Positions 1 to 4,871 of a stretch of DNA of 32,000 nucleotides are shown here, one piece after another. Made by a program: the position numbers and the translations under genes. The DNA comes from Geobacter metallireducens GS-15. GTDB taxonomy: Bacteria; Desulfobacterota; Desulfuromonadia; Geobacterales; Geobacteraceae. The notes under the pieces are model-generated. The model did no database searches, had not been told where the DNA came from, and saw only the letters and a program-made list of their open reading frames with translations. Positions within the stretch are counted from its first letter, which is position 1, and each line of letters starts with the position of its first letter. The stretch covers positions 3,660,001 through 3,692,000 of the forward strand of contig NC_007517.1 of NCBI RefSeq assembly GCF_000012925.1, given 5' to 3'.

Positions 1-1647
1 GACAAGAAACAGGCCTGGCAGGACACTGTCGTGGCCAAGAGCATCGCCAGATCCCCGGAGCGGAAGCCCGAATTCCGCACCACTTCCAATATCGAGATGG
101 AGCGCTGCTTCACTCCCGGCTTCGACGACTATCCGGGCTACGAAGAGGAGCTCGGCTTCCCGGGCCAGTACCCCTTCACCCGCGGCGTCCAGCCCACCAT
201 GTACCGGGGCCGCTTCTGGACCATGCGCCAGTACGCCGGTTTCGGCACGGCCAAGGAATCCAACGAGCGCTACAAATATCTGCTTCAGGCGGGTCAGACC
301 GGCCTTTCCGTCGCCTTCGACCTCCCCACCCAGATGGGGTACGACTCCGACGCCGCCATGGCCCAGGGCGAAGTTGGTAAAGTAGGGGTCGCCATCGACT
401 CCCTGGCCGACATGGAGATCCTCTTCGACGGCATCCCCCTGGACAAGGTCTCCACCTCCATGACCATCAACTCCACCGCCGCTATCCTCCTAGCCATGTA
501 CATCGCCGTGGCCGAGAAGCAGGGTGTCTCGCCGGAGAAGATTTCCGGCACCATCCAAAACGACATCCTCAAAGAATACATGGCCCGGGGGACTTACATC
601 TACCCCCCCCAGGAGTCGATGCGGATCATCACCGACATCTTCGCCTACTGCAAAGACAACGTCCCCAAGTGGAACACCATCTCCATCTCCGGCTACCACA
701 TCCGCGAGGCGGGCTCCAGCGCCGTGCAGGAAGTGGCCTTCACCCTGGCCGACGGCATCGCCTACGTGGAAGCCGCCATCAAGGCTGGCCTCAACGTGGA
801 TGAATTCGCCCCCCGGCTCGCCTTCTTCTTCAACGCCCACAACAACCTCTTGGAGGAAGTCGCCAAGTTCCGGGCCGCCCGCCGCATGTGGGCCACCATC
901 ATGAAAGAGCGGTTCGGGGCCAAGGATCCCAAGTCCCTCATGCTCCGCTTCCACACCCAGACCGCCGGCTGCACCCTCACCGCCCAGCAGCCCGACAACA
1001 ACATCATGCGGGTCACCATCCAGGCCCTGGCCGCCGTTCTCGGCGGCACCCAGTCGCTCCACACCAACTCCCGCGACGAGGCCCTGGCGCTCCCCACCGA
1101 AGACTCGGTCCGGATAGCGCTCCGCACCCAGCAGGTCATCGCCTACGAATCGGGCGTGGCCGACTCCATCGACCCCCTGGCCGGCAGCTTCCTCGTGGAA
1201 TCCCTCACCGACCAGATCGAAATGGCCGCCACCGAGTACATCAACAAGATCGACTCCCTCGGCGGCGCCGTCGAAGCCATCTCCCGCGGCTTCCAGCAGA
1301 AGGAAATCCAGGACTCCGCCTACGCCTACCAGCGGGCCATCGAAACCGACGACCTGATCATCGTCGGGGTCAACAAGTTCACCGTCACCGGCGAGCCGGC
1401 CCCCGAGCTTCTCAAGATCAAGGAAGAGGTCGAAATCGCCCAGAAGAAGTCCCTCGGCGACATGAAGGCCAAACGCGACGACGCAAGGGTCAAGGAAACC
1501 CTCGCCGCCCTCGCCGCCGCCGCCAAGGGAACCGACAACCTCATGCCGCCGATCCTCAACGCTGTCAAGGCCTACGCCACCCTCGGCGAAATCGCCAACG
1601 TCCTCCGCGACGTCTTCGGTGTCCACCGGGAGACGGTGGTGCTGTAA
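1..1647 (+). CDS. Methylmalonyl-CoA mutase, catalytic (large/N-terminal) subunit; the 5' end is probably outside the window
   Basis: ORF track 31..1647 (538 aa) has mutase-family blocks ([53 protein letters not shown]). The frame stays open back to base 1 ([10 protein letters not shown]...) and the track start is only a GTG, so the true start is likely upstream. The protein ends after the barrel domain and no B12-binding domain follows. Confidence 0.85.
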
Positions 1648-1651
1648 TTTT

Positions 1652-2062
1652 ATGGGAATAACACGGAGAGACGGAGAAACGGAGAAAAAGCTCTTAGAAT
1701 CAGAATTGACCGACCTGATTATTGGCAAAGCCATTGTTGTCCACAGTACGCTCGGTCCAGGGCTTCTCGAATCAGTTTATGAAGCCTGCCTTGCCTATGA
1801 ATTATCAGAAGCCGGCTTACACGTAGAACGTCAAAAGGTTTTGCCGGTACGATACAAGAACATCAACCTTGATGATGGACTCCGCATGGATCTGGTTGTC
1901 GAAAACAGGATCATTCTCGAATTGAAGTGCGTTGACACCATTCTCCCGGTCCACGAAGCACAGCTTCAGACCTATTTGAAGCTTTCAGGATTGAGAGTTG
2001 GGCTTCTCATGAACTTTTATACGAAATACCTGAAAGAGGGAATCAAACGGATAATATTCTGA
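1652..2062 (+). CDS. GxxExxY family protein (PD-(D/E)XK nuclease-like fold)
   Basis: The translation IIGKAIVVHSTLGPGLLESVYEACLAYEL...RMDLVVENRIILELKCV...HEAQLQTYLKLSGLRVGLLMNF...GIKRIIF matches the family pattern, including the G-x-x-E-x-x-Y motif (GLLESVY) and the D...ExK-like DLVV..ELK. The track ORF (1619) overlaps the mutase, so the first ATG at 1652 was chosen. The start is uncertain because the N-terminus is encoded by the left repeat arm. Confidence 0.8.
   Translation: MGITRRDGETEKKLLESELTDLIIGKAIVVHSTLGPGLLESVYEACLAYELSEAGLHVERQKVLPVRYKNINLDDGLRMDLVVENRIILELKCVDTILPVHEAQLQTYLKLSGLRVGLLMNFYTKYLKEGIKRIIF
1656..1688. repeat. Left inverted-repeat arm of the GxxExxY cassette (three ACGGAGA heptads)
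   Basis: GAATAACACGGAGAGACGGAGAAACGGAGAAAA. The heptads start at 1663, 1671 and 1679. It pairs with 2063..2096. Confidence 0.8.
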
Positions 2063-2096
2063 TTTTCTCCGTGCTCTCCGTATCTCCGTGTTATTC
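2063..2096. repeat. Right inverted-repeat arm of the GxxExxY cassette (three TCTCCGT heptads)
   Basis: TTTTCTCCGTGCTCTCCGTATCTCCGTGTTATTC. Its reverse complement, GAATAACACGGAGATACGGAGAGCACGGAGAAAA, matches the left arm at about 30 of 34 positions by hand alignment. The arm starts one base after the ORF stop codon. Confidence 0.8.
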
Positions 2097-2110
2097 AGAA
2101 AGGTTTTCCC

Positions 2111-2515
2111 ATGCTCACCAAAATCAACCATATCGGCATCGCCGTCCAATCCCTCGCCGACGCCGTTCCCTTCTACCGCGACAACCTCGGCATGGCCTTC
2201 ATGGGCACCGAGGAAGTTCCGGAGCAGAAGGTCACCGTGGCCTTTTTCCAGATCGGTGAATCGAAGATCGAGCTCCTGGAGCCCACATCCGACGACAGCC
2301 CGGTGGCGAAGTTCATCGAGAAGAACGGCGCCGGCATCCACCACATCGCCTACGAGGTGGAGGACATCGAAGCGGCCATCGCCAGGCTCGTGGCCGACGG
2401 CGCCCGGATGATCGACAGCGTGCCGCGAAACGGCGCCCACGGCGCCCGCATCGCGTTCATCCACCCTAAAACAAGTCGTGGGGTCCTGACCGAACTCTGC
2501 CAGATGGGGCACTGA
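2111..2515 (+). CDS. mce: Methylmalonyl-CoA epimerase (VOC/glyoxalase fold)
   Basis: 134 aa. INHIGIAV...IELLEP...GIHHIAYEV.DI...IAFIHPK...GVLTEL is the typical epimerase pattern. It lies next to the mutase, and a GAAAGG RBS sits upstream of the ATG. Confidence 0.9.
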   Translation: MLTKINHIGIAVQSLADAVPFYRDNLGMAFMGTEEVPEQKVTVAFFQIGESKIELLEPTSDDSPVAKFIEKNGAGIHHIAYEVEDIEAAIARLVADGARMIDSVPRNGAHGARIAFIHPKTSRGVLTELCQMGH

Positions 2516-2559
2516 CTGCATAAAGCCTCCCCAGGCCTTGATTTATCGGGATTTTTTTC

Positions 2560-2587
2560 TTGACATTGCTTTTAATCTCTTTATAGT
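2560..2587 (+). promoter_or_regulatory. Sigma-70-type promoter P1 (TTGACA-16-TATAGT)
   Basis: TTGACA at 2560-2565, a 16-nt spacer, TATAGT at 2582-2587, preceded by a T-tract. It lies in the AT-rich gap upstream of the porin gene. Confidence 0.5.
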
Positions 2588-2716
2588 GTCCCTGAATTTT
2601 AGAACGCTATTTTGCAATTTAACGTTATTGCGATAAAAATGTAACATATTCGTGACATTAACCAGGCATTATCCACGTTTTCACACTGATGACGCAGTGC
2701 CCCATGCAGTTTGCGA

Positions 2717-2744
2717 TTGACAGAACCTGATTGTTAAGTAGAAT
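2717..2744 (+). promoter_or_regulatory. Sigma-70-type promoter P2 (TTGACA-16-TAGAAT)
   Basis: TTGACA at 2717-2722, a 16-nt spacer, TAGAAT at 2739-2744. Confidence 0.5.
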
Positions 2745-2859
2745 CTCATCCCTGATATGAACGCACAGGTGCCGATGTCTACACGTCCTTATCACAATTT
2801 TGCTTGCATGTTCGCAACCGGCGGGGTCTCCCGCAGGTTTGGCGCATTGACTGAACGAC

Positions 2860-2905
2860 CCCTTTTCCCCCTTCCCTGAGAAGGGCGAAAAGGGTTTTTG
2901 TTTTT
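2860..2905 (+). terminator. Intrinsic terminator inside the porin leader
   Basis: 15-bp stem CCCTTTTCCCCCTTC / GAAGGGCGAAAAGGG (one mismatch), loop CCTGA, then TTTTTGTTTTT. The U-tract is on the plus strand only. Confidence 0.7.
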
Positions 2906-3041
2906 GGAGGGGGTACTTAAGCCAGTTACGTCTGGACATTTCTCTCGGGAAAGGTGGTGATCGGCGAAACAGCACAACAAACCACGGCTTTTAGCACCAC
3001 AACTCTCATATGCAGTTATTATCACCAATGAAGGAGGCAAC

Positions 3042-4460
3042 ATGAAAAAGAAAGTATTGGCAGTATCCGCAGCCTGTGCGCTGACCGCTGCGACGGCAGT
3101 TCCGGCCCTGGCGCTGGAAAACGAGTTCCACGGGATGTTCCGGGTGTTCGGGACGATGTCAAACTTCAACGACGGTGGTTCCGGGCGCCTTCTGCCTACA
3201 GACGCAACCACGGGAAGAGACCCCAAGACCAGGAGCTTCGTCGAGCAGCGGGCCCGCCTCATGTACATCGCCAAGGCCAACGACGATCTCAAACTGGTTA
3301 CCCACTTCGAGATCGACTCCCGCTGGGGTGACAACTCCTATGCCAACGGCCGCAACTCCGGCGGCGCCATCGGCGCCGACACCGTGAACCTGGAAACCAA
3401 GAACGTCTACCTCGACTTCAACATCCCCTCCACCCCCATGAACTTCAAGGTCGGTATCCAGCCGCTCGTCGACTCCTACAAGGGGGTCTTCTTCAACACC
3501 GACGTGGCCGCAGCCCTTGCCACCGCCAAGCTCGGCAACGGTTCCGTGGTGGTCGGCTTCGCCCGGTTGGACGACGCCGACACCTTTACCCTTGGTTCAG
3601 CAGCTGGCAGATCAACGTCCACCCCCGGTAAGGCCAAGCGCGACCTCTACATCGTGGACGGCAAGTACAACATCACCAAGGACGTGAAGGTTGGGGCCTC
3701 CTACTACCTCCTCAACGTCGATCAGAAGGCCGGGGATAACTTCGTCCCCACATCAACCACCCAAACTTATGACTACATGCGCCACACCTTCGGCGTGAAC
3801 GCTGAAGCAAAGTTCGCACCTCTCACCCTGGACGGCTTCCTCCTCTATCAGACCGCCCGCACCAACGGGCCGGACAAGATCGACCAGAAGGGCTGGGCCG
3901 CCAACCTTACCGGCAAGGGGAAGCTGGGCCCTGGCACCCTGAAGGCGTCGTTCCTCTATGCCTCCGGCGACAGCAAGAGAGGCACGGTAAGAGATGACAA
4001 CACCTATTACGGGATCACCAACGAGACCTCTGGAGCCAACGGCGAGCACAGCTTCTATGAGTCCGACATGATGATCCTGTTCCGGAACAAGTACAACATT
4101 ACCGGCGACCGGGCCATCGTGTACAACGTGACCAACGTCATCGGCGGCTTTGTGGGCTACAACGCCAACATTACTCCCAAGGCCTTCGCCAACGTCAATG
4201 CCGGTTTCGTGGCTGCCGCCACGGGGAACGACGACTTCGGTTCCGCGCGCGTCACGATTGGCGGCCACAAGAGTGATTACCTCGGCACCGAGATCAACGG
4301 CGAAATCGGCTATAAGGTGTTCGACAACCTGACCGCCAGCCTCCAGGGCGCCTATGTGTTCCTTGGCGACTACTACAAGGATACTGTCGGCACGGCAGCC
4401 AATCCTCAAACCCCGCGCGACCCGTACGAGGGCCGCATCATGCTGAACTACGCATTCTAA
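3042..4460 (+). CDS. ompJ: Outer-membrane porin, Geobacter OmpJ-like
   Basis: 472 aa. Signal peptide MKKKVLAVSAACALTAATAVPALA|LE, alternating beta-strand pattern, C-terminal ...IMLNYAF, and a strong RBS GAAGGAGG. The size (about 50 kDa) and the mce ... hisZ-purA neighbourhood match my recollection of G. sulfurreducens ompJ. The symbol rests on memory, not a search. Confidence 0.8.
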   Translation: MKKKVLAVSAACALTAATAVPALALENEFHGMFRVFGTMSNFNDGGSGRLLPTDATTGRDPKTRSFVEQRARLMYIAKANDDLKLVTHFEIDSRWGDNSYANGRNSGGAIGADTVNLETKNVYLDFNIPSTPMNFKVGIQPLVDSYKGVFFNTDVAAALATAKLGNGSVVVGFARLDDADTFTLGSAAGRSTSTPGKAKRDLYIVDGKYNITKDVKVGASYYLLNVDQKAGDNFVPTSTTQTYDYMRHTFGVNAEAKFAPLTLDGFLLYQTARTNGPDKIDQKGWAANLTGKGKLGPGTLKASFLYASGDSKRGTVRDDNTYYGITNETSGANGEHSFYESDMMILFRNKYNITGDRAIVYNVTNVIGGFVGYNANITPKAFANVNAGFVAAATGNDDFGSARVTIGGHKSDYLGTEINGEIGYKVFDNLTASLQGAYVFLGDYYKDTVGTAANPQTPRDPYEGRIMLNYAF

Positions 4461-4473
4461 GTAATGCTCGACG

Positions 4474-4505
4474 CCGGGGGGAAGCGCTGCTTCCCCCCGG
4501 TTTTT
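4474..4505 (+). terminator. Intrinsic terminator after the porin gene
   Basis: CCGGGGGGAAGC GC TGCTTCCCCCCGG followed by TTTTT. Confidence 0.8.
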
Positions 4506-4589
4506 CTTTACGCTGTGCCGTTTGACTTTACCGCGCTGTCTGGTTAACTAAATGAACAGGAAGTTCAACTATCCACTTGGAGGTCAACC

Positions 4590-4871
4590 ATGAAGAAGAT
4601 GGCTGTATTGTTGATGGCGGCATTTATGATGTCGGCTACCGTACCGGTTTTCGCTGCTGAGATGACCAAGGAAGAGAAGGACCAGTGCCTCCTGGCTTCC
4701 AAGAACTGCGGTATGGAGGTCGACACTCTGCAGAAGAAGATCAAGAAGCTCAACTCCGAGATCAAGAAGGGGAAGAAAGTCTACTCCGCCGACGAGATCA
4801 AGAAGCTCCAGCAGAAGCTTGACGAGGCCAACGCCCTGCTCGACGACATCCTCAAGGGTGGCGGCAATTAA
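4590..4871 (+). CDS. Small secreted coiled-coil protein (hypothetical)
   Basis: 93 aa. Signal peptide MKKMAVLLMAAFMMSATVPVFA|AE, a Lys/Glu-rich heptad-like region, RBS GGAGG 7 nt upstream, and its own terminator downstream. Confidence 0.7.
   Translation: MKKMAVLLMAAFMMSATVPVFAAEMTKEEKDQCLLASKNCGMEVDTLQKKIKKLNSEIKKGKKVYSADEIKKLQQKLDEANALLDDILKGGGN

Follow-up and report, generated by a model that had tools for sequence, protein, structure and literature searches.

Inverted arms of short tandem repeats enclose a GxxExxY nuclease gene in an operon spacer of Geobacter metallireducens: a candidate mobile cassette with gene-less relatives

The stretch analysed here (the window: 32,000 nucleotides of Geobacter metallireducens GS-15, NC_007517.1, positions 3,660,001 to 3,692,000) carries a small cassette between the genes for methylmalonyl-CoA mutase and methylmalonyl-CoA epimerase: a single open reading frame (ORF) of the GxxExxY family, encoding a predicted PD-(D/E)XK nuclease, enclosed by two inverted arms built of short tandem repeats (Table 1). 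An earlier note on this DNA had aligned the arms by hand at about 30 of 34 positions. The inverted alignment gives 31 identical columns out of 34 with a single 1-nt indel, and its score (50) lies beyond all of 500 dinucleotide-preserving shuffles of positions 1500-2300 (mean 18.5, standard deviation 2.1, maximum 31); the inverted match is far above chance. The window contains the double-unit pattern ACGGAGANACGGAGA at 4 places, where 0.19 would be expected. The arms bracket exactly one ORF and the unit fills the mutase-epimerase spacer, as had been claimed, and the left arm doubles as coding sequence for residues 2-13 of the protein. The low GC content of the gene, estimated before from 60-nt samples (43% against 65%), holds over the full lengths (0.45 in the cassette ORF, 0.63 in the flanking genes). 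An exact-sequence look-up returned the product as ABB33465.2 / WP_004512690.1 of G. metallireducens GS-15. The mutase has 552 aa in relatives. Three read assemblies (L001-L003) terminate within the right arm, 48 nt 5' of the epimerase ATG.

Table 1 Coordinates in the window of the cassette, its host genes and a second element of the same family.
Feature	Position	Strand	Description
Left arm	1656..1688	+	GAATAACACGGAGAGACGGAGAAACGGAGAAAA; tip GAATAAC, then three CACGGAGA-type units at 8-9 nt spacing
Right arm	2063..2096	+	Reverse complement is GAATAACACGGAGATACGGAGAGCACGGAGAAAA; begins one base past the ORF stop codon
GxxExxY / PDDEXK_3 nuclease gene, 136 aa	1652..2062	+	ATG 1652, TGA 2060-2062; Pfam and NCBIfam
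Methylmalonyl-CoA mutase N-terminal-domain gene (upstream host gene)	1..1647	+	Stop 1645-1647; 5' end beyond the window edge
Methylmalonyl-CoA epimerase gene (downstream host gene)	2111..2515	+	TIGR03081, E 3.5e-52; exact match ABB33466.1
Junction TAAttttATG	1645..1654	+	Mutase stop 4 nt ahead of the cassette start codon; likely point of translational coupling, judged from sequence
Native epimerase ribosome-binding region (AGAAAGG) and ATG	2097..2113	+	Immediately outside the right arm
Second element, gene-less, partly decayed	22352..22435	.	Left arm 22352-22375 GAATGATCACGGAGAGACGGAGAA; decayed right arm 22407-22435; divergent genes flank

The family identity proposed from the GxxExxY motif (G37-L-L-E40-S-V-Y43 in the cassette protein) was upheld by profile searches. 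The protein covers the entire PF13366 PDDEXK_3 profile (E 1.6e-43, 148.2 bits against a cut-off of 22) and the entire TIGR04256 GxxExxY profile (E 3.8e-44, 149.8 bits against a cut-off of 35); PF13366 is its sole domain, with no DDE, HUH, serine or tyrosine recombinase domain. Across alignments comprising 20 and 68 members of the family, E40, D80 and K92 proved invariant, E90 nearly so and Q104xxxY108 conserved; these residues make up the E...D...ExK core and the QxxxY motif of RecB-like nucleases. The AlphaFold2 model is of high confidence (predicted local distance difference test 90.8); only residues 1-12, for which the left arm codes, are disordered or of low confidence. Its best Foldseek match was Cas4 SSO0001 (4ic1; E 3.8e-4, probability 1.00, template-modelling score 0.51), followed by lambda exonuclease (E 2e-3), with 3r3p among the weak matches; the template-modelling score is only about 0.5 because the cassette protein is just the nuclease core. 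Conserved residues and model together point to a PD-(D/E)XK fold of the Cas4/RecB/lambda-exonuclease branch with the catalytic residues intact. Searches with the cassette protein found no match in the PDB by sequence and none in PHROGs, and the PADLOC defence-system models gave marginal Cas4 matches only (E 0.003-0.012), placing it in no defence system.

The nuclease is under strong purifying selection: the ratio of nonsynonymous to synonymous substitution rates (dN/dS) against its two closest orthologues is 0.05-0.08, equally low in the neighbouring housekeeping genes, and the synonymous divergence of the cassette in the same comparisons is 2-3.5x that of its flanks. The family is large and scattered, in line with the earlier note, with 34,904 clusters at 50% identity (E <= 1e-3). 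Its top-scoring representatives (P0380-P0394) are 263-295 aa long and have a pair of GxxExxY domains, which could reflect cassettes arranged in tandem or fused.

The association between gene and arms was examined in 80 diverse GxxExxY loci taken from metagenomes (47-61% identity to the query; 78 distinct and testable), searching each locus for the best inverted repeat between the ORF-start region and the ORF-end region. A clear and significant inverted arm pair was found in 68 of the 78 loci (about 87%), nearly all of them consisting of 2-4 tandem C-R-C-N-G-A-G units after a tip such as TTCACC. N-termini of homologues are translated arm units (GITRRDGETEKK, GITRSNGATEKK, TQSNRATEK, EPRRHGGTEK, KHRGTETQR). 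The unit flavour varies from cassette to cassette (ACGGAG, ACAGAG, GCAGAG, GCGGAG, GCCGAG, ACGAAG, ATGAAG, AGTGAG), and the two arms of any one cassette share it: the mean left-versus-right score was 42 with the own partner and 21.7 with the right arm of another cassette, the own right arm being the single best of 63 candidates in 24 cases and ranking within the top three in 41. The gene and its arms belong together as a unit. The GC content of the ORF was below that of the flanks in 45 of 45 loci tested (mean difference 9 points); such a depression is typical of selfish or horizontally moving genes. By these comparisons, the GS-15 cassette is one member of a very large and practically unstudied class distributed across phyla, in which the gene almost always comes with arms.

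Some arm pairs are turned inside out, with the tips inward and the units outward. This arrangement was found with the gene in L196, as compound cases in L160, L180 and L190, and without the gene in L067 and L118; both topologies occur, so pairing as such, not oriented ends, is the common denominator. The inside-out cassette of L196 (650-1450), from an unrelated organism, lies between the genes for the large subunit and the B12-binding subunit of methylmalonyl-CoA mutase, a second mutase-operon location that could be coincidence or site preference.

The arms also occur without the gene. A scan for stretches of three ACGGAGA units in one genome per species (596 Gb) gave at least 120 matches, with about 1 expected by chance, in Planctomycetota, Acidobacteriota, Verrucomicrobiota, Cyanobacteria, Chloroflexota, Bacteroidota, Proteobacteria and Geobacteraceae. 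Among the 120 matches listed, at least 56 have an inverted partner 1-210 nt downstream and form short hairpins without an ORF; some of the remaining three-unit matches are plain tandem arrays, unrelated to the cassettes. The gene-less hairpins (80-200 nt) are internally deleted forms with the same arms, scattered in transcribed intergenic spacers. Recognisable cargo among the arm pairs from the matches listed was GxxExxY only: two loci have an intact gene between the arms (L096, L113), and in L087 the first 44 GxxExxY residues, including the motif GPGVLETVY, are followed by a stop and the right arm. L087 is an internal-deletion intermediate linking the gene-bearing and gene-less forms. The longer interiors of the arm pairs in L020 and L029 contained no ORF.

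Reversed gene-less pairs, in which a TCTCCGT-type arm precedes an ACGGAGA-type arm at 7-15 nt and the tips abut, were seen at L118:330-420, L067 (about 1970-2050) and L090, with two copies within one Planctomycetaceae genome. In a Phycisphaerales genome, hairpin elements are repeated in tandem at two places (L114:1644-2018 and 4374-4781), with a period of 154 nt, 2.4-2.6 copies and 92-95% matches.

The second element of the window, at 22.4 kb (Table 1), is not a significant inverted repeat on DNA identity alone, and was assigned to the family because each of its arms matches a cassette arm, because it is catalogued in the literature (see below), and because it has an orthologue in L223. The L223 copy has 61 extra interior bases, and the element is absent from L224 and L225.

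Occupancy of the mutase-epimerase site was followed in relatives. The site is filled in L125 and in L129/L130 (cassette proteins 90% identical to that of the window in both cases), in L135 (65%) and in L217-L222 (71%), a lineage whose mutase is only 86% identical. It is empty in G. sulfurreducens, with a 58-nt spacer containing an unrelated GC-rich hairpin (L132:2443-2500), and in G. pickeringii, with a 53-nt spacer containing another unrelated GC-rich hairpin in the same GAAAGG...ATG context (L134:2448-2500); ORF and arms are thus not present at this site in all relatives. Both of these hairpins follow the mutase stop and precede the ribosome-binding site of the epimerase. G. hydrogenophilus, the relative with the most similar mutase (98% identity), has an unrelated 170-nt insert (L131:2331-2500), with G/C-run palindromes (GACCCCCCTCAGTCCCCCCTACCTTGTAGGGGGG...), small inverted tips AGAATGA...TCATTCT and no CACGGAGA units. 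Some hairpin is always present at this position, and hairpin-forming elements appear to have landed in this spacer, or replaced one another there, repeatedly. These comparisons indicate that occupancy of the orthologous site is polymorphic.

The two flanking genes of L135 are each about 0.9 identical to those of the window, and the value falls to about 0.65 over exactly 1640-2120, whereas the identity to the distant L217 is uniform (about 0.65-0.85); the L135 cassette is therefore not orthologous but came in by a replacement whose breakpoints lie at the arms. Across all filled lineages the arms show almost no variation and are more conserved than the cassette ORF, the left arm being the same in L135 and L217, whose mutases are only 84% identical. 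The proposal of a self-contained insertion cassette, made in the earlier note, is thus borne out by the empty sites and by the replacement, but not as a recent insertion, since the cassette is kept down to 86% mutase identity. A lookup of the identical protein (P0019) in differing contexts returned the same mutase-epimerase site only, and recent transposition was dropped. The left arm of L129/L130 has three uncompensated G-to-A changes: it now reads ACAGAGC/ACAGAGC/ACTGAG (L129:4001-4040 and L130) and the right arm is still TCTCCGT, so that G-U pairs are possible only in antisense RNA.

Concerning expression, the cassette ATG lies 4 nt past the mutase stop in the window and overlaps it (TAATG) in three other lineages, and a plus-strand scan 5' of the cassette ORF found no promoter-like site, which suggests read-through transcription and coupled translation. 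Terminator-like matches around the cassette were at chance level only. Among the metagenomic cassettes with a scorable neighbour on each side, 35 of 41 are co-directional with both neighbours. The stem of about 33 bp anticipated for the mRNA was recovered on folding positions 1640-2115, where the minimum-energy structure and the centroid structure both join the arms in a long-range stem of about 36 bp (z-score -4.5 against shuffles); in this model the stem is a physically plausible candidate substrate of RNase III. The predicted fold also pairs AUGGGAA (1652-1658) with UUCCCAU (2106-2112, overlapping the epimerase start codon), which lengthens the stem by 7 bp and masks both start codons, and which is not conserved in L125, L129 and L135. 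The 256 arm-arm mismatches in 63 cassettes comprise 53 that are G-U-compatible in the sense strand, 77 compatible in the antisense strand and 126 transversions; since there is no sense-strand G-U bias, we make no claim of selection on pairing at the RNA level. The units were also considered as Shine-Dalgarno/anti-Shine-Dalgarno mimics (GGAG/CUCC), an idea that was dropped, the commonest unit of the family being CACAGAG and not CACGGAG. Rfam searches at permissive thresholds gave only noise for both elements of the window.

The cassette is not wholly new, since Pfam and NCBIfam define the gene family and a 2009 catalogue already includes the arms. The genome paper of G. metallireducens (Aklujkar et al. 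2009) listed the arm sequences as class 2 predicted global regulator binding sites (Gmet_I201-I222), which consist of three tandem TCTCCGTS[Y] repeats paired on opposite strands at variable distance, with 21 pairs in GS-15, and are said to be related by evolution to the 24 pairs of class 1 (four GTTGCTYN units); binding of a regulator of the type of integration host factor (IHF) or HU was proposed for class 1-3 sites, and the elements were stated to be unique to this genome (PMC2700814). In Table S4 of that paper, Gmet_I219A/B adjoin Gmet_3252 and Gmet_3253 and correspond to this cassette, and the unpaired 'vestigial' Gmet_I220A, between Gmet_3273 and Gmet_3274, corresponds to the divergent spacer at 22.4 kb; the entry 'Gmet_I219A 3' of Gmet_3252' disagrees with the position of the left arm at the 5' end of that gene (PMC2700814). 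Counted from the same table, the spacers of the 21 paired class 2 sites are co-directional in 16 cases, convergent in 5 and divergent in 0 (PMC2700814). The same sequences are seen differently here: in the scans they are widely distributed and tightly associated with the GxxExxY gene, and the paper draws no link from class 2 sites to a PDDEXK_3 gene, to other phyla or to mobility (PMC2700814).

Two elements of the IS110 family (ISGme8 and ISGme9) lie at a constant distance from class 1 sites (PMC2700814), which suggests that they target the repeat family. The arms of L135 and L217, of ACGGAGCA flavour, are similar to class 1 sites, and class 1 units (GTTGCTYN) occur within the window at chance level only. 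In the literature, 'GxxExxY' and 'PDDEXK_3' were mentioned only in passing, as being of unknown function, and we found no paper containing CACGGAGACACGGAGA, none linking the arms to the gene or to mobility, and no mobility mechanism. On this last point the earlier note was right, although it had overlooked the catalogued arms. Earlier descriptions appear to lack the link between arms and gene, the wide reach of this link across phyla and the evidence for turnover.

We give roughly even chances to the reading that the cassette is a selfish nuclease cassette mobilised by recombination, with the gene-less hairpins as its non-autonomous derivatives. The data fit best with a long-lived resident of operon spacers, occasionally lost, replaced or exchanged at the arms. 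At the DNA level, the arms would be cis-acting ends, serving as recognition sites and as homology handles of about 33 bp; the nuclease would break DNA at or near an arm pair or hairpin, and host recombination would then copy or exchange the cassette in the fashion of a homing endonuclease gene, the gene-less copies being non-autonomous. At the RNA level, transcription from the mutase promoter would run on through the cassette, whose translation would be coupled to the mutase stop codon; the arm stem would loop the cassette out, mask its first codons and might be cut by RNase III, and would in this way limit the dosage of the nuclease and the harm or polarity to the operon. We infer two steps in this scheme, the nuclease-driven breakage of arm pairs or hairpins with use of arm homology, and the limitation of expression and polarity by the mRNA stem. 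A stronger version, which we hold only tentatively and consider rather less probable than its negation, is that GxxExxY cassettes are a hitherto unrecognised kind of mobile element, characterised by a minimal nuclease of the Cas4/lambda-exonuclease type and by arms that need only be able to pair. The nuclease would act on the arm hairpin or cruciform, and the arms of about 33 bp would provide the homology by which the gene is copied into any gene-less hairpin of like flavour, a homing into its own miniature derivatives, with the same arms looping the cassette out of host transcripts.

Several observations weigh against a selfish mobile cassette. At the mutase-epimerase site the cassette seems, from the comparison of orthologous loci, to be old and largely vertically inherited, and it occupies a place where relatives carry an unrelated GC-rich hairpin. 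The comparison of spacers yielded empty sites, as the earlier note had envisaged, but no target-site duplication at the filled/empty junctions (the mutase-epimerase spacer and the 22.4-kb site) or around the L038 and L055 copies. These two copies, which belong to one genome, have almost identical arms and diverged interiors, and no recent near-identical copies at differing sites were seen. The inside-out arrangements fit a requirement for pairing better than they fit oriented transposon ends. The cassette contains no integrase or second protein, and we know of no case in which a bare PD-(D/E)XK nuclease is a transposase.

Part of this evidence would suit an RNA element serving the host, in which the arms form an mRNA hairpin, placed between cistrons or at the 3' end, that sets transcript stability or RNase III cutting, similarly to repetitive extragenic palindromic (REP) sequences, bacterial interspersed mosaic elements or the stems of rRNA intervening sequences, and the nuclease gene is a tolerated or domesticated passenger. 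The stable long-range stem, the other hairpins at the same place in the empty sites, the orientation of the GS-15 pairs (none of the 21 in a divergent spacer), the co-orientation of the cassettes with their neighbours, and the pairing common to both arm topologies all speak for it. We nevertheless judge it unlikely, since the arm mismatches lack a sense G-U bias, the unit pattern is kept across phyla more than pairing alone requires, no Rfam family matches, and neither the retention of arms in about 87% of the loci nor the purifying selection on the nuclease is explained. A resident host gene, for instance a repair or defence nuclease with the arms as translational control and its patchiness produced by gene loss and homologous recombination between the flanks, seems to us similarly improbable. 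Filled sites down to 86% mutase identity, a dN/dS as low as that of the housekeeping neighbours, and a start codon that in each of the four filled lineages adjoins or overlaps the mutase stop agree with such a gene; it is difficult to reconcile with thousands of related cassettes in unrelated contexts, each with its own matching arms, with gene-less derivatives dispersed within single genomes, with the L135 replacement, which breaks at the arms and not in the flanking genes, with the consistently depressed GC content of the ORF, and with the lack of a known defence-system match beyond the weak similarity to Cas4.

That a host global regulator or nucleoid protein (IHF/HU) binds the two arms as paired sites, with the gene between them by coincidence, we consider very improbable, even though this was the proposal for class 1-3 sites (PMC2700814) and arrays bound by proteins are typically made of short tandem units. 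The sites extend beyond G. metallireducens, being present in many phyla and tied to one gene family; the unit sequence varies among cassettes of the same environments while the arms of each are still matched; presence or absence differs between close relatives; and paired sites avoid divergent promoter regions. Each of these alternatives covers part of the data, but none accounts for the tight, cassette-specific association of gene and arms plus the dispersed gene-less copies.

Among known systems, REPIN-RAYT, reportedly treated by Nunvar in 2010 and by Bertels and Rainey in 2011, is said to combine REP doublets with an associated transposase-like gene. The cassette class is similar in having one small gene flanked by inverted repeat copies, many gene-less hairpin doublets in transcribed spacers, and long-term vertical inheritance with turnover. 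RAYT is an HUH Y1 enzyme related to the IS200/IS605 transposase, and each REP is itself a palindrome. By contrast, the cassette enzyme is a PD-(D/E)XK protein and not of the HUH Y1 type, and a single cassette arm is a tandem array, the hairpin requiring both arms together. REPIN-RAYT is the closest analogue in logic, but differences in enzyme class and repeat anatomy rule it out as the family of the cassette. Miniature inverted-repeat transposable elements such as the Correia elements of Neisseria share with the cassette class short gene-less forms, terminal inverted repeats, co-transcription and long hairpins. Correia elements have, to our knowledge, TA target duplications and no known cognate gene, whereas in the cassette class no target duplication was found and a gene-bearing cognate form exists. 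Terminal inverted repeats common to gene-bearing and gene-less copies, and insertion polymorphism among related genomes, are the transposon-like traits observed here; a target-site duplication and a recognised transposase or integrase were not found.

Free-standing PD-(D/E)XK homing endonuclease genes, for example those of I-Ssp6803I and I-Bth0305I, reside in introns or phage genes. They also encode a small nuclease of the same superfamily and are selfish genes spread by host break repair; we know of none with repeat-built arms or gene-less derivatives. With Cas4, RecB and lambda exonuclease the cassette protein has the E...D...ExK and QxxxY motifs in common. Unlike Cas4 and lambda exonuclease, it is a core of about 118 aa only, with no Fe-S cluster module, toroid-forming extensions or CRISPR context, and its sequence match to Cas4 is marginal (E 0.003). 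The ORF-bearing intervening sequences of 23S rRNA, whose proteins the earlier note had brought up for comparison, resemble the cassette in carrying an ORF of about 120 aa in about 400 nt and complementary ends that form a stem in the host transcript. They lie in rRNA helices and encode a four-helix-bundle protein (S23p), unlike the cassette, which lies in an mRNA spacer, between two protein-coding genes and without Rfam matches, and encodes a nuclease. The element of Coxiella is termed selfish in the abstract of a paper on it (PMC4990558).

If the looping-out of the cassette is true, it would explain its persistence within essential operons across many phyla. PF13366/TIGR04256, a family with no assigned function, gains a testable biology: packaging between arms, leftover gene-less hairpins and exchange at orthologous sites. 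The 21 class 2 'global regulator sites' of G. metallireducens are re-interpreted accordingly in the reading as a mobile cassette, and the 24 class 1 pairs, from their stated relatedness, are probably mobile-element ends and remnants as well. If the nuclease mobilises the arms, a hairpin-based system with a nuclease only would join REPIN-RAYT on a short list, and a widespread source of structured elements within bacterial operons would be identified.

The neighbourhood of the epimerase gene has other features. Its 3' side in the window (2516-3041) is AT-rich (GC content about 0.39-0.51) and without a convincing ORF, and it contains a near-consensus promoter-like site (2560-2587; TTGACA, 16 nt, TATAGT) 5' of a 472-aa ORF at 3042-4460. 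In L125 a HicA/HicB pair is encoded about 2.5 kb downstream, and in L135 a TumE-family gene lies directly 3' of the epimerase gene.

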